From NCBI GenBank assembly GCA_964405655.1, contig CAYOOO010000002.1:2022-66021 (forward strand): 64,000 nt of DNA, written 5' to 3'. The notes under the pieces were generated by a model. It was not told where the DNA came from. It saw only the letters and a program-made list of their open reading frames with translations, and did no database searches. The position numbers were made by a program, and so were the translations under genes. Position 1 is the first letter of the stretch. Each line of letters begins with the position of its first letter. Below, one piece after another: positions 6,396 to 28,667 of the stretch. The DNA comes from an uncultured Gammaproteobacteria bacterium (GTDB lineage Bacteria > Patescibacteriota > Microgenomatia > Daviesbacterales > UBA10151).

Positions 6396-6584
6396 AAAAT
6401 ACTAAAAGCGTTCGTATTGGAGTCGCGATCCAAGAGCTGGAAGCCAAAATGCTTCCCGGAGACGAAACCGTCAAAGACAGTAACGTGTGTCGCGGAGTTT
6501 ATGCTGAGCGCAGTCGAAGCAGAGCACGTCAGGAATGAGGTCCGCCAGCTGGCGGATAAAGCAAGGTGGCACCGCCAATTTAAA
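6396..6584 (+). ncRNA. GC-rich structured element of unknown class
   Basis: ~190 nt of GC-rich sequence, much richer than the surroundings. Contains the perfect palindrome TCCGCCAGCTGGCGGA (6541-6556) and several other hairpins. Ends in an intrinsic terminator. The ORF 6417..6617 predicted here is probably spurious. Confidence 0.4.
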
Positions 6585-6636
6585 AGGCCCTTGTTTGTTC
6601 ATCTAAGTTATAGGTGAGCAAGCAAGGGCTTTTTTA
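6585..6636 (+). terminator. rho-independent terminator
   Basis: Stem ggcccttgtttg ... caagcaagggc(t) followed by TTTTTT. Confidence 0.6.
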
Positions 6637-6652
6637 AAGCTTAAAAAATATT

Positions 6653-8134
6653 ATGTTAGTCGAAACATATCAAAATAAAATATACGAGAGAGAAAAAGAC
6701 AGGTTTCTGGCTGGCTTTTCCAAACCCGGAGTTGATACGGGAAAAATTATTATAGGCTTTATAGGACAAAATCAGGATCAGGTTCATATTGTCGATTTGC
6801 CAACTCAAGAAGCTTTGCTTGTAATAGCTGATATTAGAGCTGGCCAAAAAGCAGTAGCTGCCTCCAGAACACTAGCCTTTTCCTATGCGCAGAAGTTCTT
6901 GTTTGATAAAGGGGTGTCTGTGCCAGATTTAAAGGCTAGAATGGCTGGTGCTGCCTTCCAGACAATGATGTTTAATATAGGAGTTAAACATCCATTTTTT
7001 TCAGAAGAAACAAAGAATGGCCAAACTAAAGAAGCTAAAAGGTTAACTCCAGAAGGAAGAATACTAGCTGAGGCTATGTTTACGAAGGCCCATCCGAAGG
7101 GGGTTGATAGATTATTGCCTAGTATACTAACTGAGGTAGCCAAACCAGCAAATAACAGTTTCTTTGGCATATTTGGTAAATACTTAGGTTCAACTACCTC
7201 ACCCCAGTTACAATCTGAACTAGAAGCTAGGTTTGGTTGGTATCAGGCAGCTCATTTACCACTAGAACTTGTTTTAGTTTTGAGTTTAGAGAAATTCCCT
7301 TGTCCTCTAAAATCCTTTGATGGCCTGCCTGATCTGGCAGAAGTTGGTCAACTGCTTAAGTTCAAAAAGCTGCAAGAGGAACTTAGGGATTTACATCCAG
7401 CTGGGATAAAACTAATAGTGGTTAATGAATCACCAGCCTTTTTAGGTTTCTCTTCGAATCCTGAGGTAAAAACCGCTGAAATAGAGGCATATAAGAACAA
7501 ATTTTTAGAGCTTGCACAAAAACTGGGTATAGGCGGAAGCGTCCAAGTTGAGGATATGGAAGCCCTGTTTAGAGGTTCTAAAAGGGAAGAGTTTGATACT
7601 ATTATATCCCAAGCCAAATTGACTGAAGAAGAATTAGATCTTCACAGAAGAATTGAGTTTACCAACGTAGATTTAACCAAGCTTTTCAGCCCTGAAATGA
7701 TAGCTTCATTGTCCATAGCTGATTTACTGGCAATCTATAGCGGTAGATACTCGATTGCAGGTTTTGATCAACCTCAAAGAGCTCTAAACCCGGCTCAATC
7801 GAGTCTAGTTTCAGCTATAGAATCACAGGCAACTTTTCAAGCAGAAGCTTTTAAAGCTTATTGCATAGCCAGGTCAGCTGTTCAAAACAAATATTTGGCA
7901 GAATTTGGAGTCACCAGAGGCCCATATATTAAAATAAACTGCATTGAAAAATCTGACCAGGCATATTTTCCCTTAAGTGATAGCAGGGTACTACCTCAGC
8001 ACGGAGTAGGGGTATTAACCACTAAGGGAAAAATTAAAGTCATCCCTCTAATTGTTCCAGTGTTTGAAGCTGAGAAGTATTTATTAGTTGAAGATCCAGA
8101 TTTAGAAATTAAATACTTAAAGGAGGTGGCATAA
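6653..8134 (+). CDS. hypothetical protein (493 aa); C-terminal half possibly PvcA/Dit1-like
   Basis: Long ORF. Its stop overlaps the next start (ATGA). The downstream half weakly resembles the next gene. Confidence 0.5.
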   Translation: MLVETYQNKIYEREKDRFLAGFSKPGVDTGKIIIGFIGQNQDQVHIVDLPTQEALLVIADIRAGQKAVAASRTLAFSYAQKFLFDKGVSVPDLKARMAGAAFQTMMFNIGVKHPFFSEETKNGQTKEAKRLTPEGRILAEAMFTKAHPKGVDRLLPSILTEVAKPANNSFFGIFGKYLGSTTSPQLQSELEARFGWYQAAHLPLELVLVLSLEKFPCPLKSFDGLPDLAEVGQLLKFKKLQEELRDLHPAGIKLIVVNESPAFLGFSSNPEVKTAEIEAYKNKFLELAQKLGIGGSVQVEDMEALFRGSKREEFDTIISQAKLTEEELDLHRRIEFTNVDLTKLFSPEMIASLSIADLLAIYSGRYSIAGFDQPQRALNPAQSSLVSAIESQATFQAEAFKAYCIARSAVQNKYLAEFGVTRGPYIKINCIEKSDQAYFPLSDSRVLPQHGVGVLTTKGKIKVIPLIVPVFEAEKYLLVEDPDLEIKYLKEVA

Positions 8135-9246
8135 TGAAATTAATTAATAAAGAGATAGCAGCTTATATCCCTTTTAAGCTTAGTCTTAAAAGCAAAGGTA
8201 AAATTAAACCATTCTTAAAGCCCAAACTTGTTTCTCAAGAAACTATTAAAAAGATCTTGCCTCAGCTTAAAGTTAGCTTGCCTAAAGAAGGTTCTATTTC
8301 AGAACAAGTATTTTCAATTTTAGTTAACCCTGAAATTAGATACGGGAATCTAGACTATCTGAATAAAAGTAAAAGCTATCTTTTATCTTTAATCAACAAA
8401 CTGCTTAAAGAAAAAAAACCTCTGATATTCCATATTGCGGGTTTTCCTCACAAAATGCCAAATCCTTTCTATACAACTCAAGTTGAGCCTGATTTAGGGG
8501 AATTAATGTTTCTTTGGAGGCTTGAGTCTATTGCCAGAATTTTGGAGCAAATCTACCCCTACGGGGTCAAAATAGTAATTTGTTTAGAGGGAACAGTGTT
8601 TCATTATCTGTCGATGATCTCTAGGCTTGAAGCTCAAAATTATCAGGAATTAGTTAAGAATTTAGCTTTAACTTATGATTTTGAGCACCTAAAGTTTTTA
8701 GATTTAGTTGAAACTCACTCTCAAACCAAGAATTGGGATGAGCAAGTTAGGATCAAAAGCCTAAAACTCTATCAACTCTATCAAAAAGGGGATAAGGAAG
8801 TAGTAGCCCAGCTAAAAAGGACTTGGCCTGTCATATTTACAACTCTAAATATGAGATCCTTACAGAGTAAGGAAATTATTTCTATGTTTAAAGCTGCCAA
8901 TAAAGGCTTTAAAGAGACAGTTAAAAGTAAATACCATCACCTAGCTTTATTTGCTTTTGAATCTAGCTTGACCTATCTTGCCTACAACGAGATCAAAAGA
9001 GAGTCAAAAGTAATTGAGAAAGCTATTTCGGCTGGTATAAAGATGTCAGTGGTTCCAAAGCTTAATGCATTTGGAATCTGGTGGGTTCAAAAAGATGAGT
9101 ACAAACTGCCTTATTATGGTTTGCCTTTAGTAAAAGATAACTCCTTTAAAGCTATAGAATACGCTTTTGATGCAAAAAGAATTTATAATCTTCAACCAGT
9201 TTTAATAAAAGGGTCTAGGCAGCCTTTCTTTTTCGAGGTAGTGTAA
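8134..9246 (+). CDS. hypothetical protein (370 aa); possible PvcA/Dit1-family (isonitrile-synthase-like)
   Basis: HIAGFPHKMPNPF ... PDLGE ... YGVKIVICLEGTVFHYL resembles my recollection of the GFP-K ... SDG-VF signature of the PvcA/DIT1 family. Not verified. Confidence 0.45.
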   Translation: MKLINKEIAAYIPFKLSLKSKGKIKPFLKPKLVSQETIKKILPQLKVSLPKEGSISEQVFSILVNPEIRYGNLDYLNKSKSYLLSLINKLLKEKKPLIFHIAGFPHKMPNPFYTTQVEPDLGELMFLWRLESIARILEQIYPYGVKIVICLEGTVFHYLSMISRLEAQNYQELVKNLALTYDFEHLKFLDLVETHSQTKNWDEQVRIKSLKLYQLYQKGDKEVVAQLKRTWPVIFTTLNMRSLQSKEIISMFKAANKGFKETVKSKYHHLALFAFESSLTYLAYNEIKRESKVIEKAISAGIKMSVVPKLNAFGIWWVQKDEYKLPYYGLPLVKDNSFKAIEYAFDAKRIYNLQPVLIKGSRQPFFFEVV

Positions 9247-9286
9247 ATTTAATTCAACAAGCTTATTTCTGTGATATGATTTATCT

Positions 9287-10996
9287 ATGTATAAACAAGC
9301 CTTAGAGCAAGAACTCAGAAGGGCTATTAGTAATCTAGGTTTTAACCCATTAACTGATATAGTTTTATCTATTTCTGAAAGCCCTAAATTTGGAGACTAT
9401 ACTTCGAATGTAGCGCTACAACTTGCTAAACAAAAATTAAAAAAAACCTATCACTCATCTTTAGAAATTGCTAACGATATCTTAGAAAATTTTAAACACC
9501 CACCATTTTTAAAAGAGATCCAAATAGCAGGACCAGGTTTTTTAAACTTTTTCCTCAAAGAGGAAAGTTTACTGGAAATTTTAAAAGCCGAATACCCAAA
9601 AAAAGAGGCAGTTCAAAAGAGATATATTGTTGAATATGCAGATCCCAATACTCATAAAGCCTTTCATATTGGTCACTTAAGAACATTAGCGATTGGTGAG
9701 TCGGTCTCCAGGCTTCTAGAGTTTGAAGGAAATGAGGTTTTCAGGGTTAATTATGGCTCAGACGTGGGTTTGTCAGTGGCAAAGGCCTTGTGGGGCATAG
9801 AAAAACTGAAAGATCACTACCAAAAAGCTAAGAAGTTGTCCTTAAGACAAAAAGCTGAGTTTTTAGGAGAGGCTTACGCCTATGGTCATGACAAATATGA
9901 AACTGATGAATCTGCCAAAAAGGAAATAGACGAAATTACCAAACAGCTCTATCAAAGAGATAAGGCTATTTTACCTCTATGGAAAGAAACAAAAGAGTGG
10001 AGCTTAGCTTATTTTGACAGTATTTACTCCAGGACAGGCACTGAGTTTGACCGCAGAGTCAACGAATCTGAGGTTGATCAACTTGGTAAGCAGATCGTTT
10101 TAGAAAATATTGGTAAGGTCTTTAAAAAAGATCAAGGTGCTATTATCTTCGAGGGTGAAAAATATGGGCTTCATAACAGAGTTTTTATAAACTCAGTCGG
10201 TAACCCAACCTATGAGGCCAAGGATATAGGCTTAATTGAGCTTTACGAACAGATTTTTCCCTTTGATAAAGCAATAATTCTTTCTGATGTGACTCAAGCC
10301 TCTTATCATCAAGTTGTAAAAAAAGCGATTGAACTTATTCATCCTCATCTAACTGATAGGAGACACCATCTTTCCTTTGGCTTTGTCTCTTTGGTGACAG
10401 GCAAGATGTCATCGAGGACGGGAAATATTATTACTGCTGACAGTTTAATAGATCAAGTCATAGAGGAGATAAAGGATAGCTATCCTAATAGTAAAAACCT
10501 GACAGAAGCTAGTTTAAACTTGATTGCAGTGGCTGCAATCAAGTTTTCTTACCTAAAGTACTCAATCTCTTCAGATATCAGCTTAGATATTAAACAGTCG
10601 ATTTCTTTACAAGGAGATAGCGGTCCTTATCTTCTTTATGCTTACGCTAGGATTAATTCTATTTTAAATCGCGCAAAAAAAATTAAAGCTAGAAAGGAAA
10701 AAGTTGATCTTGAAACAAAGCTAATCGCGCAAACCCTGGAAGACGAAGAAAGAGAAGTCTTACGTTCACTAGAATACTTTGAAATAGTGGTTGGGAAAGC
10801 AACCCAGAGATATCAACCCAACGAAGTTGCTAACTTTCTTTTAAATTTAGCTAAATCTTTTAATCTTTTTTATGAAAAGTACCCTGTCTTAGGTTCAGAT
10901 AAAGAGAAGTTTAGGCTGGATCTTTCCAAAAGAGTAGCTGAAACCATTAAAATAGGTCTGAATCTGCTTGGTATAGAGACAGTTGAGAAGATGTGA
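9287..10996 (+). CDS. argS: arginyl-tRNA synthetase
   Basis: 569 aa. Class I HIGH motif (AFHIGHLRT), N-terminal Arg_tRNA_synt_N-like region and a C-terminal DALR anticodon-binding domain. Confidence 0.9.
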   Translation: MYKQALEQELRRAISNLGFNPLTDIVLSISESPKFGDYTSNVALQLAKQKLKKTYHSSLEIANDILENFKHPPFLKEIQIAGPGFLNFFLKEESLLEILKAEYPKKEAVQKRYIVEYADPNTHKAFHIGHLRTLAIGESVSRLLEFEGNEVFRVNYGSDVGLSVAKALWGIEKLKDHYQKAKKLSLRQKAEFLGEAYAYGHDKYETDESAKKEIDEITKQLYQRDKAILPLWKETKEWSLAYFDSIYSRTGTEFDRRVNESEVDQLGKQIVLENIGKVFKKDQGAIIFEGEKYGLHNRVFINSVGNPTYEAKDIGLIELYEQIFPFDKAIILSDVTQASYHQVVKKAIELIHPHLTDRRHHLSFGFVSLVTGKMSSRTGNIITADSLIDQVIEEIKDSYPNSKNLTEASLNLIAVAAIKFSYLKYSISSDISLDIKQSISLQGDSGPYLLYAYARINSILNRAKKIKARKEKVDLETKLIAQTLEDEEREVLRSLEYFEIVVGKATQRYQPNEVANFLLNLAKSFNLFYEKYPVLGSDKEKFRLDLSKRVAETIKIGLNLLGIETVEKM

Positions 10997-11008
10997 TAGT
11001 TAAAATTT

Positions 11009-12055
11009 ATGTTTTTTAAAAAGCATTCAGAAAAAAGTAAAGGAAGAATCTTTAAGATCTTCAGAATATTCTTAAGCCTGGTTATGATGGGGGTTTTGGC
11101 CTTGGGATTGATACAAGCTTATCGGACTTTCTCTGGTTATGATCCCTTGACATTGAGCCCAAAATCGCTTGTCAATAACCTACTTAGCTCTGACTCCGCT
11201 TATGAGTTGTTAACAGGATTATTATCCTTTAATCCTTCAACCTCTCTTAGTACAGCTAAGAAGCTGCTTTCAGACAAACCCAAAAACAATTCCCAGTCAG
11301 TATCCAAAGATTCAATAAAAGCAAACTTGAAGTTCAGATTTGCATTAGTAGCAGATTCCCATAAAGACAATCAAGGTTTGAATAAAGCTTTATCTCAAGC
11401 TAAAGCTAGCGGAGCAAAGTTTGTTATTGGGTTAGGGGATTATTCTGAGGTTGGTACAGTTGATGAGTTAAGATTAGCTAAGCAGCAGTTTGATACAGCT
11501 GGACTAGCTTATTATCTAACTGCAGGTGATCATGATCTTTGGGACTCAAGAAACAAAAACTTATCACCTGAACAAAACTTCAAAGAAATCTTTGGCTCTC
11601 CTTTTCAATCATTTTCTTATGAAAATGCCAGATTTCTACTAATTTATAACAGTGATAACTATTTAGGGATAGACTCACTTCAGCTTAAATGGATCGAAGA
11701 TGAGCTATCTAGGATTTCTTCTGAAAATGGAGTTTCAGGAAGTAAAAAAGTTACATTTTCTATTACCCATATCCCGCTTTATCACCCATCCTCTGATCAT
11801 ATAATGGGTAAAGAGAACCCAAAGTTAAGAAATCAAACTGAACACCTAAGAAGTCTTTTTAAAAGACATAATATATCGGAAGTTTTTTATGGAGATACTC
11901 ACTTTTATTCGCATTACACTGACCCAGAAAATTCTTTGAGTATGACTTCAGTTGGTGCAGTCACCTCGGAAAGAAATCCTCAATCACCTCGATTTGCTCT
12001 GGTTGACGTTTTTGATGATGGCAGTTACAATATTACGGATGTTGAGATCAGGTAA
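11009..12055 (+). CDS. calcineurin-like metallophosphoesterase, membrane-anchored
   Basis: N-terminal TM helix. Metallophosphoesterase motifs ADSH, GLGDY, GDHD, THIPLYH and GDTH. Confidence 0.7.
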   Translation: MFFKKHSEKSKGRIFKIFRIFLSLVMMGVLALGLIQAYRTFSGYDPLTLSPKSLVNNLLSSDSAYELLTGLLSFNPSTSLSTAKKLLSDKPKNNSQSVSKDSIKANLKFRFALVADSHKDNQGLNKALSQAKASGAKFVIGLGDYSEVGTVDELRLAKQQFDTAGLAYYLTAGDHDLWDSRNKNLSPEQNFKEIFGSPFQSFSYENARFLLIYNSDNYLGIDSLQLKWIEDELSRISSENGVSGSKKVTFSITHIPLYHPSSDHIMGKENPKLRNQTEHLRSLFKRHNISEVFYGDTHFYSHYTDPENSLSMTSVGAVTSERNPQSPRFALVDVFDDGSYNITDVEIR

Positions 12056-12086
12056 CTCCTGATCTTTTTATATATTTTTATATATT

Positions 12087-12596
12087 ATGATACAAAGAAC
12101 ATTAATTTTATTAAAACCAGATGCAGTTGAGAAAAATTTAGTGGGTGAGGTAATAGGCAGATATGAAAAAGCTGGGTTAAAGGTCGTTGAACTTAAGATG
12201 CTTAATGCTTCTGACGAGATTATCAGTCAGCATTACCCCATGGAAGAGGATTATTTAAGAATAATTGGAGAAAAAAGCGCCAAAGCTGGAGAGAAAATAG
12301 CTGATCCTGTGGAGCAAGGAAGAATGGTGGTTTCTTGGCTTAGAAAATTTATCAGTTCAGGTCCAATCGTAGCTATGGTTTTAGAAGGTGAGGATGCAGT
12401 TATAAGAGCTAGAAAAATTACTGGATTTACAGATCCTTCTCAGGCTGAAAAAGGAACGATCAGAGCCGATTTAGGTGAGGATTCAATTTTAAAAGCAAAT
12501 AGAGAAAAAAGACCTGTTTATAACCTGATCCATGCCTCGGGAGATGAATTAGAAGCTCAGAAAGAAATCAGTCTGTGGTTTCCAAATGAAAACTAG
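12087..12596 (+). CDS. ndk: nucleoside diphosphate kinase
   Basis: N-terminus ERTLILLKPDAV and NLIHASGD (catalytic His) match NDK. Confidence 0.8.
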   Translation: MIQRTLILLKPDAVEKNLVGEVIGRYEKAGLKVVELKMLNASDEIISQHYPMEEDYLRIIGEKSAKAGEKIADPVEQGRMVVSWLRKFISSGPIVAMVLEGEDAVIRARKITGFTDPSQAEKGTIRADLGEDSILKANREKRPVYNLIHASGDELEAQKEISLWFPNEN

Positions 12597-12752
12597 CCTG
12601 TTGCTATGCAATTGAGCACTGGTTTGGCAAAGAGTAAATCTTCTTTAGTCGGAGACGGAGGATCACACGCCCGCTATTGGCGGGCTGAACCAATTAAGCT
12701 CGGAAAGGAGGGAATCGAACCTTATCCTCTCGGTCCAATCCGCCAAGATCTG

Positions 12753-12824
<72 letters not shown>

Positions 12825-13110
12825 ATTAAGGCGGACCTGCCGATGAACTACACCCCCCGGGTATTCAATTTTGTAATTATATAGCCTTCATTTCAAAACT
12901 ACCAGAAACTTTTCTTGACATCAATCTAGTGGAGGATAACAATGTAGGTATGATGCCACCATAATCTAGTATTGTGACATAGGTTTTTGGTAGAGCAGCA
13001 AAATTACCTGTTTATTCTTAGTTAGAGCAATCTATTAGAGTGTGATAATTTGGAAATTTAAATTTTCCTACTCTTGAAACTGTTTTAGTGCTAAAATATA
13101 GCAAAGATTT

Positions 13111-13183
13111 GGCCTCGTAGCTCAATGGACAGAGCAAGCCCGTCCTAAGGGCGAGATTGGAGGTTCGACTCCTCTCGGGGCCG
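13111..13183 (+). tRNA. tRNA-Arg (anticodon CCT), no encoded CCA
   Basis: Acceptor GGCCTCG/CGGGGCC, D arm GCTC..GAGC, anticodon loop GTCCTAA, T arm GGAGG-TTCGACT-CCTCT. Confidence 0.85.
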
Positions 13184-13200
13184 CTATCAATGTTAGAATA

Positions 13201-15153: not shown

Positions 15154-15308
15154 ATATCCTTTGATCTAGTTTGTATATCTTGTGACCGGTTTATAAGACT
15201 GGTAGAATCCTGTTATCGAAATTTTCCTTGTCTCCGCCAATGGCGGAGCAAGCGATCTCGCAAACTATTATGGTGCTTCGCACCTACAAGAAAGGAGGTT
15301 TGCTGCGA

Positions 15309-16325
15309 TTGTTTAATTTCTCCAAAAGAATCGGGATAGATTTAGGGACAGCAAATTCGCTAGTTTATGTTGTAGGTGAAGGGATTGTTATGAATGAGCC
15401 AAGCGTGGTGGCTGTCTCAACAATTGATAACCGGGTGTTAGCAGTTGGTAATGAAGCTAAAGAAATGCTTGGTAGGACTCCTGGAAATATTGTTGCCACC
15501 CGACCGTTAAGGGATGGTGTTATTGCCGATTATGTGACAACTGAAGCCATGCTTCGCTACTTTATAGACAGCATCTGCGGCTCCAGTAGAATCTTTAAGC
15601 CAGAAGTTATGGTTTGTGTTCCTGCAGGAGTGACTTCAGTTGAAAGAAGGGCAGTGATGGATGCAACTTTATCAGCTGGAGCAAAGATGTCTTATCTGAT
15701 TGATGAACCTTTGGCTGCTGCAATTGGTGCAAATATACCTATTGCTAACCCATCAGGCAATATGATTGTTGATATTGGTGGTGGTACTACTGAGGCAGCA
15801 GTGATCTGTTTAGGTGGAGTGGTGGTTCATAGTAGTGTCAGAGTAGGAGGAAATAAGATTGATGAATCTATTGTTCAGTATTTAAGGAAAAAGTATGGAC
15901 TAATTATTGGAGAGCACCAATCTGAACAAGTTAAAATTCAGATTGGTAATAGTCTTAAACCTGATTCAACAGAAGTTAAACAGATGGAAGTTAGGGGAAG
16001 AGATGGTGCAACAGGGCTACCAAGAACTGTAGTTTTAAATTCAGCTGAGATATGTGAGGCTATTCAAGATCCGCTGAATAAAATCGTTGGTGCAGTTAAA
16101 GGTGTTTTAGAACAAACACCACCTGAATTGGCCTCCGATATCATTGATAAAGGAATAGTTATGTCAGGTGGAACTTCAATGCTGACAAATTTAGATAAAC
16201 TGATGACTCAATCTACAGGCGTACCTTGTCATATCTCTGAAAACCCGCTACTATCAGTAGTTTTGGGTACAGGTTTAGCTTTAGAAAATTTAGATCTTTA
16301 CAAGAGAAGTGTTAGTAGAAAATAA
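15309..16325 (+). CDS. mreB: rod shape-determining protein MreB (paralog 1)
   Basis: IGIDLGTANS, DIGGGTTE and other actin-fold motifs. Start moved to TTG at 15309, 10 nt after the AAAGGAGG ribosome-binding site. The track ORF begins at 15228, inside a 5' UTR that contains a GC-rich palindrome. Confidence 0.85.
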   Translation: MFNFSKRIGIDLGTANSLVYVVGEGIVMNEPSVVAVSTIDNRVLAVGNEAKEMLGRTPGNIVATRPLRDGVIADYVTTEAMLRYFIDSICGSSRIFKPEVMVCVPAGVTSVERRAVMDATLSAGAKMSYLIDEPLAAAIGANIPIANPSGNMIVDIGGGTTEAAVICLGGVVVHSSVRVGGNKIDESIVQYLRKKYGLIIGEHQSEQVKIQIGNSLKPDSTEVKQMEVRGRDGATGLPRTVVLNSAEICEAIQDPLNKIVGAVKGVLEQTPPELASDIIDKGIVMSGGTSMLTNLDKLMTQSTGVPCHISENPLLSVVLGTGLALENLDLYKRSVSRK

Positions 16326-20607: not shown

Positions 20608-20752
20608 TCGCGGCCGCGACTGAATGTACTGAAAATTATTAGTGGAATTCATTTTATATAAGATTGCAGCTTTGGAGGATCCAACTCTTTTTTCTGTATC
20701 ACACCTGCAATTTGGGGCGGAGATAACTTTGACAGGACTCAAAAAGAAAAAA

Positions 20753-21943: not shown

Positions 21944-21975
21944 AAAAAAACTCCTTCTTCGAGGAGTTTGAGTAG
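21944..21975 (-). promoter_or_regulatory. rplJ leader hairpin that sequesters the ribosome-binding site, followed by a U-run (L10-leader-like)
   Basis: Minus-strand RNA reads AAACTCCTCGAAGAAGGAGTTTTTTTATG. The stem CTCCT/AGGAG contains the SD, and 7 U precede the start codon. Confidence 0.4.
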
Positions 21976-22128
21976 TATGTATCAAGTATTATGTATTAAG
22001 GGATTTTTGTTTTCCCATAATACTTACTACTTATCCCTTGATACTAATTTTCAACGCCTCGGTGGGATTTACCAATTCCTTGAACCCACTTTCTTAAGCT
22101 TTTAAAATTCTAATCTAGTTGATACAAT

Positions 22129-22467
22129 TTGTCAATGGCAACACTCATCATTACTAAAAAAGCAACTAAAGATCAGATTAAAAAGATGTCATATGAGTAT
22201 GGAAGTTATATTAAAGTAGTAGTAGATATTGAAAAGAGTATATTAGCAGGCGGAGCAGCCATGCATTATGATGAGGAGAGACTATTATTAGAATATGGTT
22301 CAAAACAGCAGAACCTTTGGGGTGGAGGAATAGATTTAGATACAGGTTCAATAGATTATAATTCCATGATTAATTTACGTCCTAATCAAAACAACCCTAG
22401 TAGAGAAATCGTCTCTTTAGAAATTAGAGAGAAGTTTGATAAAATTGTCAAGAGATTGCTAATATGA
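22129..22467 (+). CDS. hypothetical protein (112 aa)
   Basis: ORF whose stop overlaps the next start (ATGA). Conserved-looking core YIKVVVDIEKSILAGG ... NLWGGGIDL. Confidence 0.5.
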   Translation: MSMATLIITKKATKDQIKKMSYEYGSYIKVVVDIEKSILAGGAAMHYDEERLLLEYGSKQQNLWGGGIDLDTGSIDYNSMINLRPNQNNPSREIVSLEIREKFDKIVKRLLI

Positions 22468-22811
22468 AAAATATCCAGGTTACAACTAGTCGCTCCAGCG
22501 ACTCATTGTCCCCAGCTCAGCTTCAAATTTTAAATATCTCGGTTAATCTGGCGAGAATAGGTAACTGGGTGGCTGATTCTTATGAACAGAAAAAAGAATT
22601 GATAAATAAGTTTATTGAACAAACTGCTCAGATGATCTCTGATTTAGATAGTCAAAATAGCTCAAAAGAGTTCAAAACTATCTTAAGTAAGTTTAAGACT
22701 GAGTTTTATAAGCTCAAGGAAGAGCCTATCGATAAAACAAACAAACCTATTTGGGCAGAAAAAGCTTTAACGTGGGCTAATATCTTGCAACATAGAGCTA
22801 AACTAGCCTAA
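22464..22811 (+). CDS. hypothetical protein (115 aa)
   Basis: ORF coupled to the previous one. Its 5' end carries a copy of the locus-specific inverted-repeat motif, so the true start could be internal. Confidence 0.45.
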   Translation: MKNIQVTTSRSSDSLSPAQLQILNISVNLARIGNWVADSYEQKKELINKFIEQTAQMISDLDSQNSSKEFKTILSKFKTEFYKLKEEPIDKTNKPIWAEKALTWANILQHRAKLA

Positions 22812-23665
22812 AACTTAGGTACCCAGATCCAATAACCACTGCCGCCTGAGGCAGGTGGATCGCCTTCAGATCCGGTATTGGCAGGAACCTTGAGCTCAGC
22901 AGATTTGCTGGCAGGTGGAGTGGGTGAATACCAAGTACCAGAAGTTCCTGTTTTGCCCAGATTTTTGATTATAAAGCCAATATCAAAGCTGTTGATGGAG
23001 TTATCTAAGTTAAAATCAATTAATGGGTTCCATTTTTTTGAGGTTGGATTTGCTCCTAAAGCGCTTAGAGTAATATTGTAATCTAGGGTATTAATAGTAT
23101 TGTCCTCATTTAAGTCACCAGTTAGCAAATTAAGAGTATTTAAATCATTCACAGAGGGCTTAACAGTAAAGGCTGAGGCTGTGGCTATCTGCACACTACC
23201 TTTAAGGTAAGCTGTATAGGTTTGACTTTGAGTTAAACCTGCTAGAGACAGATTGGAGTACTCTCCTGAATCAGGTACATTAACAGTAAAAGAGAGAAGG
23301 TATTGAGGATTAGTAATGGGTTGTCCTTGGGCAATTCCTACGAATAACTTAGTAGCCTGTTTGTTTTTGGGTCTTCCTTCGAGGTTAATCTTAAACTTTA
23401 AGGTAGGTCCAAAGCTAATTTCAGCTGAGGAGCTAGCCAGAGAGGAAGATCCATCGCTACCGCCAGACTCTTTAAGTAAACTTTTTTTTAACTCATCAAT
23501 TGGGTTGGTTTTAGGAACTTCTTTAGGGGAGGTTTGAGGGAAGATACTTGTTGTTTTAGCTGCATTTTTTTGATTGATTCTTTTAGAGAGGATAAATGAG
23601 CCTGATGGGATCAGGATGATTAAAACTGCGATGACTATTAAGATTATCTTCTCTTTACCGCGCAT
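22808..23665 (-). CDS. secreted protein with dockerin-like calcium-binding repeats
   Basis: N-terminal signal/TM segment. C-terminus GDLNEDNTINTLDYN ... DFNLDNSINSFDIG fits the dockerin type I repeat pattern. Confidence 0.6.
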   Translation of the reverse strand: MRGKEKIILIVIAVLIILIPSGSFILSKRINQKNAAKTTSIFPQTSPKEVPKTNPIDELKKSLLKESGGSDGSSSLASSSAEISFGPTLKFKINLEGRPKNKQATKLFVGIAQGQPITNPQYLLSFTVNVPDSGEYSNLSLAGLTQSQTYTAYLKGSVQIATASAFTVKPSVNDLNTLNLLTGDLNEDNTINTLDYNITLSALGANPTSKKWNPLIDFNLDNSINSFDIGFIIKNLGKTGTSGTWYSPTPPASKSAELKVPANTGSEGDPPASGGSGYWIWVPKF

Positions 23666-23732
23666 TTTCCCTAACTTTACTATACTATGGAAAAGTTAAA
23701 AGTAAAAAGTGTAAAGTAAATTAAGTAGCAAA

Positions 23733-24788
23733 ATGAACTCTCTCCCCGCTCTAAAGAACGTGGTTTTGAGTTCTTGTCTAACAATGAGAGTACTTTCTTT
23801 AAAGAATCTAGTTAGGATTTTAATAAACAGCCTGATTGGTTTAATTTTAATCCTGATATGGTTGAAGCTGGTTAACCTTCAAGAAGTTTTAGACAAGATT
23901 TCACAAGTAAATCTCCTCTTTACCATACCTTTTATTATTCTATTTGCACTATCTTTTAATCTAAGGGCAATCAGGCTTAAGATACTGCTTTCTTCAGAAC
24001 AAAGTATCCCTTTATCTAACATAGTCTATCTGACTTCTCTTTCCCAGCTTTTAAGCTTTTTGATACCCTTAAGACTAGGGGAGTTAGCTAAAGCAGTTTA
24101 TCTGGGGGCTGAATATAAAATTAAGTTTTCCAAAGCCTTAATTTGGATTCTTTTAGACAGGTTTATAGATTTTTGGACAGTCTTAATAATATCTTTAGTT
24201 TTACTTATCTTTCTGCCTACCAACCTGCCCGAAAACTTAAAGCTTAGTTTATCTTTCCTTATTGTTCTGTCCAGCTTAGGGGGGATCTTTTTAATATTCT
24301 TCCCTAAATATTCCAAAAAACTTGCTGAAATCTTTGCGTTACTCTTAGTATTTAAGCCTGTTAAAAGTCTATTTTTAAAAGTTAGCTTCCATATTATTGA
24401 TACAGCCAGTTTTTTAAATAGGGGGTTAGTAGGCAGTATAAAATTAATTCTGATTACAATCTTAGTACTTATTTCAGATGCGCTGGCTTGGTGGGTACTA
24501 TTTGTAATTGTGTTTAAGACCCAAGCTGGCCTTTTGCCAGTGCTTTTAGGTTCACTTCTAAATACTTTAACTTACCTAATTCCTGCTGCTCCTGGGTATA
24601 TAGGAAGCGCTGAGGCAGCAGGACTAGCTGTTTTCCATTTTGGTTTGGGTTTTGATAAAACTTTGGTTTCAGCCATAACTGTTTTAAACCATGCCTTAAC
24701 TGTTTTTTGTGTTCTTTTTTATGGGCTAATCTCCCTTTACCTTCTTAAATTTGATTTGAGCTTAGTTTGGAAGAAACTAAAAAGATAA
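23733..24788 (+). CDS. UPF0104/flippase-like (MprF-type) polytopic membrane protein
   Basis: Multiple TM helices. N-terminal region typical of lysylphosphatidylglycerol-synthase TM-domain family proteins. Confidence 0.55.
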   Translation: MNSLPALKNVVLSSCLTMRVLSLKNLVRILINSLIGLILILIWLKLVNLQEVLDKISQVNLLFTIPFIILFALSFNLRAIRLKILLSSEQSIPLSNIVYLTSLSQLLSFLIPLRLGELAKAVYLGAEYKIKFSKALIWILLDRFIDFWTVLIISLVLLIFLPTNLPENLKLSLSFLIVLSSLGGIFLIFFPKYSKKLAEIFALLLVFKPVKSLFLKVSFHIIDTASFLNRGLVGSIKLILITILVLISDALAWWVLFVIVFKTQAGLLPVLLGSLLNTLTYLIPAAPGYIGSAEAAGLAVFHFGLGFDKTLVSAITVLNHALTVFCVLFYGLISLYLLKFDLSLVWKKLKR

Positions 24789-25984
24789 AAAGTATTATGA
24801 ATCAGGAATCAGAGAATAACTCCAAAGCCAGTCATACAGCAAAAAAAGCTGATGAGTTTGATGAACCCAGATTACCAGGCGAGGAAGCAGCTGCTTTTTT
24901 AAGGCAGGAAGGTTTCAAGAAGTATCAGCAGGAGCTTCAAGCCCGAGGAGCCCGCCATAAAAAACATGGCGAGGTTGCTAGAGGAATTACCGAGGCGCTA
25001 CAGACTCAAGAAATTGAAGATTACGAACCTTGTCATTTATCTGATGAAGCTAGAGAGAGAATATTGGAAAGAATCAATCAGGCAGCCAGAAAAGAACCTA
25101 CTCTAGAAGCCCAGCAACTTTGGGCAGAGCTCTACCTTTTTCTAAGGGACCACTCTGCTTTTTTTACAGAGTTATCTCATGGGACAACTGCTGAACTTTT
25201 TGATCAGATACTGGTTGAAGGTATCAAACCATATGCAGTTTTAAAGGATCAGGGTAAACTAAGATTTGGTGAGGGAGCCAGAGCAAGCCGTAGAACAAAG
25301 GAAAGAGGGTTAAACCAGATTCCTGCAGGGGTCGGATTGGGCGGTTTAGGCACAGCTATTGCCTATGCGGAATTCACTGCAGATGCAAGACAAAACGAGA
25401 GGTTACAAAATATCCTATCTTTACACAACAGGGCGCTTAGAGATTCCAAGGATCCTGATCTTACTGAAGAATCCAGAAGATTTTACCAGGAACAGTTAGA
25501 GTTTTATAAAGAGGAGCTAAGAACCCCTCCTTCAAAAGGAAAATGGGAATTTCCGGTTGTGCTTGGTTTTGATCATTCTCAAGAAGTTAGCTCGTTTGAT
25601 AATCCTAAGATTGGTTGGGTTGTTGCCTGGCCAGAAGTATATAAAGGTGGGGAATTTAAAGTCCTTTCTTCTTTAAAAAAGGAGCGGGATTTTAAGTCTG
25701 AGGCTAGGCTTGATAGTGAGGTTTATTTACCTCCTGGGGATGAAGTACCATCTGAGGCAATAACTTTAATTGCTTGCCCAAAAGATAAAATGGAAATGGT
25801 AAGAAGAGTAGCAAGGGAGTTTAGAGGAGAAGATATATCTTTTATCTCACTTGAGGCTTTAGAACTTTTACCTAAAATAGGTGTTGATCGGGTTGACTCA
25901 GGCTACAAAACTGCCCGATCCACTACATCAGGAGTAGTAATCAGTGAAAGCCTCAGAAGAACTCGAGAAGACTTACTATATTGA
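24767..25984 (+). CDS. hypothetical protein (405 aa), Arg/Glu-rich
   Basis: Long ORF. Its end overlaps the rplA 3' end (convergent). Composition resembles other R-rich hypothetical proteins in the window. Confidence 0.5.
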   Translation: MEETKKIKSIMNQESENNSKASHTAKKADEFDEPRLPGEEAAAFLRQEGFKKYQQELQARGARHKKHGEVARGITEALQTQEIEDYEPCHLSDEARERILERINQAARKEPTLEAQQLWAELYLFLRDHSAFFTELSHGTTAELFDQILVEGIKPYAVLKDQGKLRFGEGARASRRTKERGLNQIPAGVGLGGLGTAIAYAEFTADARQNERLQNILSLHNRALRDSKDPDLTEESRRFYQEQLEFYKEELRTPPSKGKWEFPVVLGFDHSQEVSSFDNPKIGWVVAWPEVYKGGEFKVLSSLKKERDFKSEARLDSEVYLPPGDEVPSEAITLIACPKDKMEMVRRVAREFRGEDISFISLEALELLPKIGVDRVDSGYKTARSTTSGVVISESLRRTREDLLY

Positions 25985-26902
25985 GGATAGGTCGACTTTA
26001 ACTCCTGGACCCAAGGTAGGTGAGAGGGTGACTTTTTTTATTCTGGATTTTCCCAAGGTTATTAGTAAGGTTTTAACATTGGCAGTAAGTTCCTCAGAAG
26101 GCTGGTTAAGTTTTCCCAAAGCTAGATGAATAATTGGAGCTTTTGGCTCACTTTTATATTCTGTTTTACCACCTTGGAAATTTTCAACAGCTTTTTTCAA
26201 TCCGTCAGCTGACGGACTGGTAATAGTTCCATTCTTGGGATTTGGCATCAAACCTTTAGGTCCTAAGACTTTGGCAACTTTAGCCAGTTTACTCATCCAC
26301 AAAGGTGTAGTAATAACCATATCAAAGTCTATTTTACCCTTACTTATCTCCTCTAATGTTTCATCTGTACCAACAATATCTGCTCCAGACTCTTGGGCAT
26401 CTTTGCCAAAAGCCAGAATCCTTAACTTCTTTCCTTCTGAGTAAGGTAGAGAAACTAAACCTCTAAGACCAGTTGTTTGAGTATTGATATGAATTTCTAA
26501 AGAACCTGTGAACTTTGAGTAGGAAAGTTTTTTTGAGAGTTCAACAGCTTCAGGAATAGAGTAGTGCTTACCTCTTTCAAATTCCTCTACAGTTTTTTGG
26601 TATTTTTTAGAACGCTTTCTAGGCTGTCCTTGCTTTTTTTGTTTGGGCTTCTCGGAAGCAGTTTTAGTTGCTGATGGAGCTTGAGTAACCGAGCCGCCCA
26701 CTTTCTGCTGGGTATCTTCTATTTGAACTTCTTGATCCTTAGTAAGCTCAACTGCGCCAACTGCTTTATCTGATTCAGACTTTGCTTTCTTTAAAGCTTG
26801 ATCTCGCTCAATATTTGTTGCCAGAACTTTTTTAGGAGCTTTCTTTTTTGGTTCCTCAGCTGCTACTGAGTCATCAATTGTTTTAATCTTAGTTTTTCCC
26901 AT
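25976..26902 (-). CDS. rplA: 50S ribosomal protein L1 with an ~95-aa Lys/Glu-rich N-terminal extension
   Basis: Core from KKYQKTVEEFERGKHYSIPEAVELSKK ... to the end matches L1. The upstream in-frame extension is lysine-rich. Confidence 0.85.
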   Translation of the reverse strand: MGKTKIKTIDDSVAAEEPKKKAPKKVLATNIERDQALKKAKSESDKAVGAVELTKDQEVQIEDTQQKVGGSVTQAPSATKTASEKPKQKKQGQPRKRSKKYQKTVEEFERGKHYSIPEAVELSKKLSYSKFTGSLEIHINTQTTGLRGLVSLPYSEGKKLRILAFGKDAQESGADIVGTDETLEEISKGKIDFDMVITTPLWMSKLAKVAKVLGPKGLMPNPKNGTITSPSADGLKKAVENFQGGKTEYKSEPKAPIIHLALGKLNQPSEELTANVKTLLITLGKSRIKKVTLSPTLGPGVKVDLSSI

Positions 26903-26907
26903 GGTTT

Positions 26908-27336
26908 TTAACTTGAAACTTTAACCCCCATTGATCTGGCAGTGCCTTCTACTATTTTCATGGCAGCCTCCAAATCACTAGCGTTTAGATCCGGCATTTT
27001 AGCTTTGGCAATATCTTCTACCTGACTTTTGGATAAAGTTCCGGCACTTTCATGGCCGCTTTTTCCGGCTCCTTTTTCTACTCCTAAAGCCTTTTTAATC
27101 ATTTCAGCCACAGGTGGTTCTTTGGTAATAAAGCTAAATGTTCTATCTTCAAAAACTGTGATTACAACTGGTAGGATATTGCCTTGTTTTTCTTTAGTCT
27201 TCTCATTAAAGGCCTTAACAAAGTCCATTATAGGCAAGCCATGTTGACCCAAAGCTGGGCCAACAGGAGGAGCGGCAGTTGCTGTACCTGCAGGAATATT
27301 TAGTTTTATAAATGTTTTTACCTTTTTGTTTGCCAT
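26908..27336 (-). CDS. rplK: 50S ribosomal protein L11
   Basis: [33 protein letters not shown] is the L11 N-terminal signature. Confidence 0.92.
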
Positions 27337-27438
27337 ATAAATAATTTAAAACATTTACTCAGGCCTTTAGGCCGCTGTATGTTTTAATCTTTTTTGCTGC
27401 CATAAGTTTTGCAATTATATGTAAATTTGAATTCTATC

Positions 27439-27762
27439 TCAAGCATCTTGTTGTTCCAAGAAAACCTGGTGCGCTTGAAAGCGTACTTCCATAAACCTAA
27501 CACCACTTCTTCTTATAGAAGCCATGAACTCTTGATTTGTTTGGCCATTAAGTCTTGCATTGCAATTCAGACAAATACTTGGCAGGTCAGATCTATAAGC
27601 CTTTAAACCTATTGCAGCCTTGTCTATCTCTTTTGCTGAAACTACTCTTATTAGGTCGTCTGCTTCTGTAGAAAATAAAGTATAGACATGGCCTGCTAAA
27701 TTTCTAGCTTTCTCGTTCCCTGGACAGGGATATGCTACAAATTCGTATTCCGACAAACTCAT
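27439..27762 (-). CDS. hypothetical protein (107 aa) inserted between nusG and rplK
   Basis: Its start lies 3 nt after the nusG stop. CPG ... CLNC cysteines. No family recognised. Confidence 0.5.
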   Translation of the reverse strand: MSLSEYEFVAYPCPGNEKARNLAGHVYTLFSTEADDLIRVVSAKEIDKAAIGLKAYRSDLPSICLNCNARLNGQTNQEFMASIRRSGVRFMEVRFQAHQVFLEQQDA

Positions 27763-27764
27763 TT

Positions 27765-28580
27765 TTAAAGTTTAGTTATCTGCAAAAAGTCTAGCTCCAC
27801 AGGTGTTTCTCTACCAAAGATGGAAACTAAGACTCTGACCTTGCCTTTTTCCTTATCAACTGTATCAACTTTGCCTATAAATTCTGAAAAAGGACCATCA
27901 ATAATTTTGACTGTGTCATTTGGTAAGAAAACATCTTTAAAAGTAGCAGGAGCACCCTGGCTCATGAAGGTCACAATAGACTTAACCTCTGATTCAGGGA
28001 TAGAGGTAGGTTTGTTACCAATTCCTACAAAGGAGGTAACACCTGGGGTGGTTCTTACAGCCAGCCAGGAGGTATCATCTAAGATCATCTTAACCAAGAT
28101 ATAGCCTGGGAAGATTTTTTCTTTAATCTGCTCCTTTTTACCTGCTCTAATCTCAATTTTGTCTTGAGTTGGGACTAAGATATCTAAAATTTTATGCTCC
28201 AAGTGTTCAGATTCAATTTTCTGTTTTAGATTAGCTAAAACTTTGTTCTCATGACCAGAGTAAGTATGAACCACATACCACTTAGCTTTATCAGACTCGC
28301 TTGATGGAGAAGAAGGTGCTGATCGGGTTGGGGTGGTAGGCTCATCTGTTTCTTGCTCATCGTTGTCCATGGAAGCTCCTGCTTCAGCGGGTTCTTGGTC
28401 TGTGGCCGATTCGTCGATTTGTTCCTCTTTACTATCAATCTGCTCTTCAGCTTTTGTTCCTTGTTCAGGAACTTCTGGCTGCTCAGCTTCGCTAATTGTT
28501 TTGCCTGATTCAGACTCAGCATCTTTTAGAGCTTCATCTGTTTGTGTATTTTGTTTTTGATCGTTGCTATTATCTGCCAT
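27765..28580 (-). CDS. nusG: transcription antiterminator NusG with an ~95-aa acidic N-terminal extension
   Basis: NGN and KOW core (KWYVVHTYSGHENKV ... GKVRVLVSIFGRETPVELDF). The extension is D/E/Q/S-rich. Confidence 0.88.
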   Translation of the reverse strand: MADNSNDQKQNTQTDEALKDAESESGKTISEAEQPEVPEQGTKAEEQIDSKEEQIDESATDQEPAEAGASMDNDEQETDEPTTPTRSAPSSPSSESDKAKWYVVHTYSGHENKVLANLKQKIESEHLEHKILDILVPTQDKIEIRAGKKEQIKEKIFPGYILVKMILDDTSWLAVRTTPGVTSFVGIGNKPTSIPESEVKSIVTFMSQGAPATFKDVFLPNDTVKIIDGPFSEFIGKVDTVDKEKGKVRVLVSIFGRETPVELDFLQITKL

Positions 28581-28667
28581 ATTTACCTTTTTTCTCCAAT
28601 CAGTCTCCGCCAGCTGGCGGATCCTGTTGGCGGAATCGATTTTTCTTCAAATACGATTAAGTTTTAA

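Follow-up and report, generated by a model that had tools for sequence, protein, structure and literature searches.

Rickettsia palindromic elements (RPEs) were reportedly described by Ogata et al. in 2000. They occur only in Rickettsia, measure ~100-150 bp, have no coding capacity of their own and are found both in non-coding DNA and in frame within genes, in surface or variable regions. These elements have been reviewed (PMC10969869). In the very AT-rich mitochondrial DNA of yeast, GC clusters are mobile sequences that are short, palindromic and GC-rich; they are intergenic, occasionally lie in frame in genes and co-exist with homing-endonuclease genes (PMC4478555). Generally, REP/BIME sequences are dispersed, hairpin-forming repeats that are mostly extragenic, often at gene ends, essentially never coding, and that give stable RNA stem-loops. 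They are species-specific, imperfect palindromes of 20-40 nt with a conserved 5' tetranucleotide (GTAG-like), and they are linked to a RAYT gene (Y1 transposase). HIP1 (GCGATCGC) of cyanobacteria and the uptake sequences DUS/USS are over-represented oligomers of 8-12 nt whose maintenance acts at the nucleotide level; roughly one is found per kb, also in genes at tolerant positions with a frame bias, and no hairpin is required.

The window, as we call the whole 64-kb stretch of AT-rich Daviesbacteria (CPR) DNA analyzed here (37% GC), contains two copies of TCCGCCAGCTGGCGGA, an exact 16-base GC-rich palindrome, at 6541-6556 (plus strand) and 28606-28621 (minus strand). TCCGCCGGCTGGCGGA, with one loop change, lies at 55853-55868 in the mreB2 coding sequence, and CTCCGCCAATGGCGGAG, which includes TCCGCC-AAT-GGCGGA from 15233, lies at 15232-15248, 5' of mreB1. 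The sequence-only reading had reported copies at these four sites; re-reading the sequences confirmed all of them with their coordinates. We found an additional, fifth member, TCCGTCAGCTGACGGA, at 26201-26216 (minus strand) in the rplA coding sequence, a perfect palindrome that departs from the 16-mer at paired positions 5 and 12 and is thus a compensated variant. The arms are intact around centers of 1, 3 or 4 nt, and the 16-mer hairpin alone folds at -10.2 kcal/mol (copy 1). Five of the 13 GC-rich hairpins in the window with a stem of at least 6 bp belong to this family, whose density is ~1 per 13-20 kb (4-5 members in 64 kb). The earlier judgment that such recurrence is very unlikely by chance was borne out: 0.07 copies of the 16-mer with up to three mismatches are expected per shuffle of the window, and CCGCC-N0-12-GGCGG was observed four times versus 0.01 expected. 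Because the shuffles expect so few copies, a chance origin is excluded. The observation of a recurring palindrome was otherwise confirmed in part: three of the five members do lie in 5' leaders, but two are in coding sequence, and the extra CCGCC or GGCGG said to accompany each copy is present at sites 1 and 2 only. No window copy is followed by the T-run that an intrinsic terminator requires. The palindrome is probably a tiny dispersed hairpin repeat and not a dedicated leader switch; it is shared with other CPR bacteria and Bacteroidota and occurs both at hairpin tips in RNA and, in frame, within loops of essential proteins.

Copy 1 sits in a structured leader at 6402-6636 (plus strand) that, judged by its sequence features, is a divergent Arg-type T-box leader of the argS operon with an intrinsic terminator. 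A promoter-like TTGATT-16-TGnTATAAT precedes it at 6357-6384, and the operon that follows is PvcA/DIT1-like - argS (argS at 9287-10996). The match to RF00230 (6402-6595, full model) scores 30.3 bits, under the gathering score of 93, and its E value of 2.2e-5 holds only when the 206 nt are searched alone, the match being missed in other searches. The leader further differs from the T-box riboswitch by an ultrashort hairpin aligned as Stem I and by a 52-nt insertion. Shared with that class are the T-box sequence (CAAGGUGGCACCGCC agrees with the consensus AGGGUGGNACCGCG at 12 of 14 positions), a 7-nt UGGN bulge, a choice between antiterminator and terminator, and an aminoacyl-tRNA synthetase gene downstream. 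The antiterminator, AAGCAAGG-UGGCACC-GCC..GGC-CCUUGUUU, forms the helices AAGCAAGG/CCUUGUUU and GCC/GGC around the bulge UGGCACC; it overlaps the terminator at 6586-6630, which with its T-run overlaps GGCCCUUGUUU, and the two structures are mutually exclusive. A tRNA-Arg with G73 matches the UGGC, and the Stem I loop of the model alignment, GUCGCGA, contains CGC (Arg); no homologous leaders were found in which covariation could be seen. In the Rfam T-box alignment, copy 1 (UCCGCC-AGCU-GGCGGA) fills the Stem III columns, immediately 5' of the T-box sequence. The T-box hosts this copy only, and the 16-mer is its Stem III, not the switch itself.

Copy 2 lies upstream of the nusG ATG (28580), at a distance of 25 nt, where it forms the apex of a conserved hairpin in the secE-nusG spacer (28596-28630, minus strand; lower stem CCAA-CAG/CUG-A-UUGG). 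Four Daviesbacteria share this fold in their spacers, and in relative L210 a compensatory change turns CAG/CUG into GAG/CUC. The apexes, however, vary (GCUGCGAAGCAGA, ACGACGAAGUCGG, GCGCGAUAGCGA): the 16-mer caps the hairpin in the window only, and the orthologous spacers of L210, L211 and L213 lack it. The extra motif beside copy 2 is likewise not kept in relatives (CCGAC in L213).

The two mreB genes each carry a family member, an observation that could hint at regulation and counts against a repeat module. Copy 3 is a variant with arms TCCGCCA/TGGCGGA around a central A; extended by CUUG/CAAG, it folds at 15227-15252 (plus strand) as the 5'-proximal hairpin of the mreB1 leader. A promoter-like TTGTGA-17-TGnTAGAAT is located at 15180-15208, and mreB1 likely starts at the TTG at 15309, after GGAGG at 15294-15298. 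Copy 4 (plus strand, one mismatch) encodes S-A-G-W-R-I in mreB2, and its 6-bp stem is intact because the lone mismatch falls in the loop. It lies within a +3/4-residue protein loop found in a subclade of MreB2 orthologs, a net in-frame gain of 12 nt versus short-loop orthologs. In ortholog L206 these codons contain the exact 16-mer, and a single base separates L207 and L208 from it; the L207 change yields a G-U pair, so that pairing is kept only in the sense-strand RNA. Across four orthologs the degenerate third positions within the palindrome are all invariant (5/5), versus 19% gene-wide. From these patterns we infer RNA-level retention of the hairpin. Such retention is not universal, since the left arm is gone in three mreB2 lineages.

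Copy 5 reads S-P-S-A-D-G in rplA, is part of a +12-nt insertion and folds at -8.1 kcal/mol; three relatives lack its four residues (GTVT-DNL/SDL/EDL versus GTIT-SPSADGL in the window). The check proposed earlier, conservation at orthologous positions, covered three sites: a conserved regulatory element failed it at sites 2 and 5 and held only in part at mreB2. Relatives carry copies in other genes. An exact 16-mer occupies a variable-length loop of fmt in L126; a GT4 glycosyltransferase of L210 has TTCGCCAGCTGGCGAA in place of TTCGCCAAAGGAAAAA (six changes in 9 nt, no indel); and rplA of L212 contains a second palindrome, the 20-mer CCTGCCTGCCGGCAGGCAGG, in frame. Neither the fmt nor the glycosyltransferase copy is present in the window. 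A palindromic repeat has thus been inserted in frame in four coding genes, mreB2, rplA, fmt of L126 and rplA of L212. The compensated variants at 26201 and at L210:19997 are still perfect palindromes, and a TTCGCC variant specific to one genome, GCA_016176465, is present in both of its copies. Loci of relatives, 10-20 kb each, held zero or one exact or near-exact copy (up to two mismatches). No filled and empty allele pairs were seen among very close strains, the other assemblies being 99.99% identical.

Beyond the window, at least 120 stretches of GTDB genomes matched the 16-mer, and 90 of the 136 exact copies among the matches listed were in genomes under 47% GC, mostly CPR and Bacteroidota. 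Among these matches, the flanks of the low-GC copies are non-homologous, and 57 of the 90 (63%) fall in no ORF of 150 aa or more, versus a background of 21% (p = 1e-17). The palindrome is stop-free in all frames; the low-GC copies inside ORFs, again among the matches listed, read PPAGG in 27 of 33 cases (p = 1.4e-8). Viral contigs gave 10 low-GC and 15 mid-GC matches to the 16-mer, and 1-2 and 2-5, respectively, to each of three composition-matched control palindromes. In ~12 further TCCGCC-loop-GGCGGA copies the arms are kept while the loop varies in sequence and length, and some copies in other genomes cap terminator-like hairpins. Flank bias is weak (Y at -3, A/C at -1) and is the sole target rule derivable.

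A switch acting through alternative pairings, as the sequence-only reading had suggested, was not supported. The sole real switch is the site 1 antiterminator/terminator, where the extra CCGCC (at 6572) belongs to the T-box sequence GGUGGCACCGCC; the extra motif at site 2 is not conserved, and the site 2 copy itself is missing at the orthologous position in three relatives. Two members are in-frame insertions in coding sequence, and many CPR and Bacteroidota genomes have the same 16-mer in unrelated contexts. The earlier interpretation is still partly supported: among its three candidate roles, we favor a combination of the third, a miniature selfish palindromic element, with the second, a REP-like hairpin.

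We put a probability of roughly 60% on the 16-mer being an ultra-short hairpin module of the REP/RPE/GC-cluster kind, spread by short-patch insertion and kept as a hairpin. Like RPEs, it encodes nothing of its own and occurs in frame in genes and in non-coding DNA, but it is a 16-nt unit (net +12 nt in genes) from a non-Rickettsia host; its GC richness contrasts with an AT-rich genome, and its sequence is the same in CPR and Bacteroidota. With GC clusters it shares GC richness, palindromy, an AT-rich host and both intergenic and in-frame genic copies; those clusters are longer (~30-60 bp), organellar and have defined target preferences, versus the weak Y-N-A/C before the arm here. Like REPs, it is dispersed, hairpin-forming and mostly extragenic. 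It differs from them as a perfect 16-nt palindrome with weakly biased flanks in place of a 5' tetranucleotide; no linked RAYT gene was found in the loci around copies, and the 16-mer is not confined to extragenic DNA, since two of five window members and 33 of the 90 low-GC GTDB copies (among the matches listed) lie in long ORFs. REP-like repeats are normally lineage-specific, so the cross-phylum identity of the 16-mer is unusual for them and counts against this reading. Like HIP1 and DUS/USS, it is a short specific oligomer that also lies within genes with a frame bias, but it is rarer by a factor of at least ten and has co-varying arms.

Several other explanations were weighed. A trans-acting RNA-binding protein or nuclease might bind the hairpin and control mRNA stability or translation in a small regulon of the argS operon, nusG, mreB1, mreB2 and rplA. 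Several genes with an identical sequence, a copy in each mreB paralog, nucleotide-level retention within mreB2 over four deep lineages, and changes that preserve RNA pairing, with arms kept despite loop variation, would fit this. However, the site 2 and rplA copies are missing at orthologous positions, relatives have copies in different genes (fmt, GT4), unrelated contexts of the 16-mer number in the hundreds across phyla, terminator tips and repeats among them, and the strong PPAGG bias is better read as a tolerance filter than as function, which makes a regulon unlikely. The same sequence could be read in duplex form by a dimeric protein, as an operator or a parS/Noc-type chromosome-organizing site, given that the 16 bp are perfectly palindromic through the center and that copies are both promoter-proximal and intragenic, as parS and Noc sites are. 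We consider this very improbable: the differing centers shift the half-site spacing, which is not fixed, the L207 U-G change keeps pairing in the sense-strand RNA alone, orthologous sites show high turnover, and copies cap longer hairpins whose stems are unrelated.

Competence-biased uptake and recombination could instead lead a DNA uptake-like sequence to accumulate slowly at tolerant positions, and comEA and comEC are indeed in the window (4700-6360). Known uptake sequences occur in terminator-like hairpins and variable protein loops with a frame bias, as the copies do, and the patch-type replacement in GT4 of L210 and the genome-specific TTCGCC variant are in keeping with the idea. Known ones, however, occur ~once per kb, a density seen neither in the window nor in the relatives' loci, and form lineage-specific dialects, whereas one sequence is common to several phyla here; variable loop length with the arms kept suggests a hairpin, not a duplex motif. 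We regard this explanation as doubtful at best. Strongly disfavored is the proposal that the copies are independent, convergent strong hairpins or chance matches of no common origin. Structured leaders and terminators of AT-rich genomes do favor GC-rich stems, and T-box Stem III and hairpin apexes are free to vary, but convergence would have to produce two copies identical at 16 of 16 positions plus an ancestral exact copy in mreB2 against 0.01-0.07 expected, the 16-mer outnumbers the composition-matched control palindromes 5-10 fold in low- and mid-GC viral contigs, and the in-frame protein insertions are left unexplained.

Under the dispersed-repeat explanation, a family with arms TCCGCC/GGCGGA and a sister palindrome, CCTGCCTGCCGGCAGGCAGG, would be scattered through low-GC CPR and Bacteroidota genomes, its copies gained secondarily as a ~12-nt patch is inserted or replaced. 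Copies would persist where harm is small or stability is gained, either at the apex of hairpins pre-existing in transcripts or in flexible protein loops, where the palindrome is mostly read as PPAGG. Each RNA copy would give a stem of 6-8 bp (~-10 kcal/mol) that may have been co-opted, in the window, as Stem III of the Arg T-box, the secE-nusG cap, the mreB1 5'-proximal hairpin and the four-residue loops of MreB2 and L1. As to the means of spread, we would guess that DNA breaks, perhaps introduced by small free-standing GIY-YIG nucleases, are followed by short-patch copying with the help of microhomology. No enzyme linked to the copies was found in the 64-kb window, and no protein family recurred in loci around copies elsewhere apart from a few GIY-YIG ORFs, a link that comprises three complete and two partial cases. 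Three GIY-YIG ORFs were detected in the loci examined, each of them no more than 125 nt from a 16-mer.

The GC-rich 16-nt palindrome TCCGCCAGCTGGCGGA (here the 16-mer, with arms TCCGCC and GGCGGA) occurs twice in exact form in the window, at 6541-6556 in the leader of the argS operon (site 1) and at 28606-28621 in the secE-nusG spacer (site 2), and variants lie at 15232-15248 in the mreB1 leader (CTCCGCCAATGGCGGAG; site 3) and at 55853-55868 within the mreB2 coding sequence (TCCGCCGGCTGGCGGA; site 4). These coordinates and sequences, first noted in a sequence-only reading of the window, were confirmed. Inventorying the window's GC-rich hairpins (stems of 6 bp or more that include 5 or more G/C, loops no longer than 8) added a fifth member that the earlier reading had not reported, TCCGTCAGCTGACGGA at 26201-26216 in the rplA coding sequence (site 5), a perfect palindrome departing from the 16-mer at paired positions 5 and 12. 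Only 13 sites in the 64 kb, which has a GC content of 37%, entered this inventory, and 5 of the 13 belong to the 16-mer family. Dinucleotide-preserving shuffles of the window predicted 0.07 matches to the 16-mer with three or fewer mismatches, and 0.01 occurrences of CCGCC-N0-12-GGCGG compared with four observed, so the copies truly recur and do so beyond chance. The window also has isolated GC-rich hairpins or palindromes outside the family, at 45399-45417, 12669-12685, and 20608-20619: CCTCCGGCTTTGCCGGAGG, which adjoins tRNA-Thr, GCCCGCTATTGGCGGGC, and TCGCGGCCGCGA. Homologs of MreB2 and NusG assign the source to Candidatus Daviesbacteria (Microgenomates group, CPR). GCA_016176395.1 and several Logan assemblies contain the same strain as the source (99.99% identity), and these other assemblies of the organism offer no strain polymorphism to compare.

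The sequence-only reading had described an element recurring in 5' leaders, with an extra CCGCC or GGCGG beside every copy whose alternative pairings might act as a switch. Such extra motifs are present at sites 1 and 2 but not at the remaining copies. Nor are the copies a conserved leader regulator, as the 16-mer is missing from the orthologous site-2 spacers and sites 4 and 5 are in-frame insertions in coding sequences. A switch does exist at site 1, but it appears to be an ordinary T-box switch in which, according to the covariance alignment, the 16-mer is a bystander helix (Stem III).

Site 2 lies between secE (28668-28853, minus strand) and nusG (27765-28580, minus strand), where the minus strand of the spacer reads UUCCGCCAACAG-GA-16-mer-GA-CUGAUUGGAG. 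The 16-mer is absent from the orthologous spacers of all three other Daviesbacteria compared (loci L210, L211, and L213, fetched from other genomes). The same fold is predicted in all four (window 28596-28630, minus strand; L210 about 9810-9845; L211 about 6020-6055; L213 about 9260-9295), and the four have in common a lower stem, CCAA-CAG / CUG-A-UUGG with a bulged A, which carries one compensatory change in L210 (CCAA-GAG / CUC-A-UUGG). The apexes in L210, L211, and L213 are unrelated (GCUGCGAAGCAGA, ACGACGAAGUCGG, and GCGCGAUAGCGA). Because the lower stem is shared and the apexes are unrelated, the 16-mer at site 2 is probably a lineage-specific swap of the tip on a pre-existing hairpin. 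The CCGCC upstream of it is not conserved, reading CCGAC in L213, and no terminator was found after site 2. The 3' strand of the hairpin runs on into a GGAG(G) motif, and the NusG encoded downstream carries at its N terminus about 95 extra aa of acidic, low-complexity sequence, the length of which differs between relatives.

The spacer of 290 nt ahead of 6653 is predicted to fold much more stably than shuffled sequences (z = -6.1). Between a promoter-like site (TTGATT-16-TGnTATAAT, 6357-6384) and a 20-bp terminator with a T-run (6586-6630) lies a predicted antiterminator, AAGCAAGG-UGGCACC-GCC-AAUUUAAAA-GGC-CCUUGUUU, of canonical T-box form: two helices surround a 7-nt UGGN bulge, 12 of the 14 T-box-sequence positions are matched, and the 3' strand is common to the terminator. 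When 6395-6600 was searched alone, Rfam model RF00230 aligned over its full length at 30.3 bits (E = 2.2e-5; gathering score 93). This match appeared only once the terminator was left out of the searched segment; the T-box was missed both by Rfam at the gathering score and by an E-value scan over 401 nt. In the alignment the Stem III columns are occupied by the 16-mer, and ACCGC of the T-box sequence accounts for the "extra CCGCC" at 6572. We annotate 6392-6636 (plus strand) as a divergent T-box leader with an ultrashort Stem I, scoring below the gathering threshold. It may be an arginine T-box: argS (9287-10996) lies inside the downstream operon, the discriminator of the window's tRNA-Arg is G73, which pairs with UGGC, and, by inference only, the Arg codon CGC is present in the model-aligned Stem I loop GUCGCGA. 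That operon comprises two PvcA/DIT1-like genes (6653-9246), argS, a metallophosphoesterase gene, and ndk, and is preceded in the window by leuS (1784-4198), comEA (4700-5317), and comEC (5320-6360). The product of its first gene (6653-8134, plus strand) has 493 aa and a weak PvcA/DIT1 match, and a word-indexed search of 5.8 billion proteins matched it only to itself. An SRP-RNA-like reading of the 6400-6640 element was dropped, as the helix-closing 3' strand is missing and Rfam lent no support. A by-product of this analysis is therefore a divergent predicted T-box, below Rfam's threshold, over an argS operon in a CPR bacterium; we found no literature on T-box riboswitches in Patescibacteria/CPR.

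At site 3, mreB1 (about 15309-16325) is preceded by a promoter-like sequence (TTGTGA-17-TGnTAGAAT, 15180-15208) and by an extended hairpin, CUUG-U-CUCCGCC-AAU-GGCGGAG-C-AAG (15227-15252), a dozen or so nucleotides from where the mRNA is predicted to begin. None of the fetched loci contained an MreB1 ortholog.

Site 4 lies in mreB2 (55556-56614). The relevant MreB2 loop is short (xPG-RFPKIP) in about half of 120 orthologs, and a subclade of the orthologs has 3-4 extra residues (xPGS-ASWRIPKIP). In the L206 gene the codons for S-A-S-W-R-I, TCC GCC AGC TGG CGG ATT, hold an exact 16-mer, and the same codons read TTCGCC... in L207, TCCACC... in L208, and ...GGCT... in the window; short-loop genes lack 9 nt (L126) or 12 nt (L129) at the palindrome position. 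The window's change falls in the hairpin loop and leaves the stem intact (-10.2 kcal/mol), and that in L207 produces a G-U pair. These four orthologs are 75-79% identical, and degenerate third positions are invariant across them at 19% gene-wide versus 5/5 inside the palindrome, the only such run of five among 334 mreB2 windows (0.19^5 = 2.4e-4). Three further orthologs (L417-L419) kept the extra residues and lost the left arm, which weakened an account by universal purifying selection on this copy; the seven lineages are roughly equidistant from each other. The palindrome has thus persisted in some deep lineages and decayed in others. Scanning metagenomes with MreB2 yielded chiefly distant MreBs, and only L126, L129, and L135 were useful.

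In rplA (25976-26902, minus strand, beside rplK at 26908-27336, minus strand), the window encodes GTIT-SPSADGL-KK versus GTVT-DNL/SDL/EDL in three relatives, and its +12-nt insertion carries the compensated palindrome TCCGTCAGCTGACGGA. The encoded ribosomal protein L1 also carries about 120 extra Lys-rich aa at its N terminus, a stretch whose length differs between relatives. In L126, fmt has an exact 16-mer in a variable-length loop (N-P-P-A-G-G-P); this copy is absent from the window and L207. Codons 10-15 of an L210 glycosyltransferase gene read TTCGCCAGCTGGCGAA where the window has TTCGCCAAAGGAAAAA; six of nine bases differ and there is no indel, a patch replacement adjoining a pre-existing TTCGCCA. 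A second, sister palindrome, the 20-mer CCTGCCTGCCGGCAGGCAGG, lies in frame in rplA of the Daviesbacteria relative L212 (7461-7480), encoding LPAGRQG.

Exact matching of the 16-mer to GTDB species genomes returned at least 120 stretches. Among the matches listed, about 41 are, by their titles, from CPR (all major groups) and about 33 from Bacteroidota, and the rest are mostly from high-GC genomes, in which chance matches are expected. Since CPR account for no more than a few percent of GTDB species, with genomes near 1 Mb, their excess is large. Also among the matches listed, 90 of 136 copies lie in loci below 47% GC, with unrelated flanks; 57 of these 90 fall outside ORFs of at least 150 aa versus a background of 21% (p = 1e-17), and 27 of the 33 in-ORF copies are in the PPAGG frame (p = 1.4e-8), a bias that would be expected from a tolerance filter on random insertions. 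Many copies in this set cap longer hairpins with unrelated lower stems, some terminator-like, and its low-GC loci hold about a dozen TCCGCC-loop-GGCGGA sequences with other 3-4 nt loops. The arms stay constant and the centre differs in both sequence and length, which favours a hairpin and disfavours a fixed-spacing duplex site. The 20-mer is the sole other recurrent GC palindrome in the 701 kb of low-GC loci among the matches listed, and accompanies the 16-mer in unrelated low-GC genomes (L021, L023, L024, L038, L043, L100, and L103). Viral contigs, used as an independent check, gave 10 low-GC and 15 mid-GC matches to the 16-mer versus 1-2 and 2-5 for three composition-matched control palindromes, with similar counts for both at high GC. 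GC hairpins, CCGCC-GCA-GGCGG and TCCGCC-AAGA-GGCGGA among them, abound in a non-coding stretch of about 900 nt in L126 (2500-3400), and an Rfam scan of L126 2300-3500 gave no match at the gathering score. In the literature searched, the 16-mer is not mentioned, the 12-nt core of the 20-mer appears in just two papers, both on zebrafish nf1 genes and unrelated, and nothing relevant turned up on palindromic repeats in CPR.

The evidence best supports an ultra-short repeat, GC-rich and hairpin-forming, that is acquired secondarily and is common to CPR and Bacteroidota. Such a repeat would be gained via short-patch insertion or replacement and would persist at the tips of hairpins and within flexible loops of proteins, its hairpin form being retained in many lineages. 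Its nearest analogues are the Rickettsia palindromic elements (RPEs), yeast mitochondrial GC clusters (PMC4478555), REPs, and HIP1, but it misses their defining features of size, host range, extragenic restriction, and associated transposase.

All-against-all clustering of ORFs near copies yielded no transposase-like family. All three GIY-YIG ORFs detectable in fetched loci (L034, 461-790; L067, 2195-2545; L060, 3815-4275) lie 22-121 nt from a 16-mer and encode no domain other than the catalytic one (PF01541, E = 1e-12 to 1e-21), and L049 (1-140) and L062 (3985-4200) hold truncated forms of the arrangement. In L067, direct repeats flank the ORF, each made up of the 5'-most 25 nt of the adjacent tRNA-Asn with the 16-mer in place of the D-loop; L062 has a tRNA-Lys 5' fragment in which the 16-mer replaces 8 nt, and L023 a tRNA-like fragment with the 20-mer at the same place. 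The small GIY-YIG genes adjoin tRNA genes and are flanked by 16-mer-carrying tRNA 5' fragments or GTCATTGCGAG-type repeats. The 64-kb window contains no GIY-YIG ORF, and the link to the palindrome is suggestive, not established.

A bolder and improbable reading, to which we give a probability of roughly 0.15, is that CPR and Bacteroidota/FCB carry an undescribed, cross-phylum, minimal "written" DNA. The 16-mer and sister palindromes such as the 20-mer would be copied into the tips of hairpins, tRNA-like sequences, and loops of proteins during repair of breaks made by small free-standing GIY-YIG nucleases, and a hairpin-dependent process would maintain them there. If true, no smaller homing-type mobile unit would be known, and this one would remodel the essential MreB, L1, and Fmt in reduced genomes; small, repeat-poor CPR genomes would not be free of selfish DNA, and their repeats would be too short for standard repeat and mobile-element finders. 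The 16-nt palindromes change essential proteins through 4-residue loop insertions and supplant the tips of functional RNA hairpins (T-box Stem III and the conserved secE-nusG hairpin), and so could confound motif discovery, as here. To our knowledge, the spread of yeast mitochondrial GC clusters, RPEs, and HIP1 is still an open question, and a sequence common to CPR and Bacteroidota with a GIY-YIG link near tRNA genes may offer a handle on how mini-palindromes spread.

Within 12690-12880 (minus strand) of the window, tRNA-Pro(CGG) is enclosed by TCCGCC (12739) and GGCGGA (12830), which pair in the predicted fold, and a T-arm-like GGUUCGAUUCCCUCC comes next. Nesting of this tRNA gene inside a second one (12640-12890) was considered and dropped, as ARAGORN called the outer tRNA only at a relaxed threshold and with poor stems; the surrounding sequence may be a decayed tRNA-like remnant.
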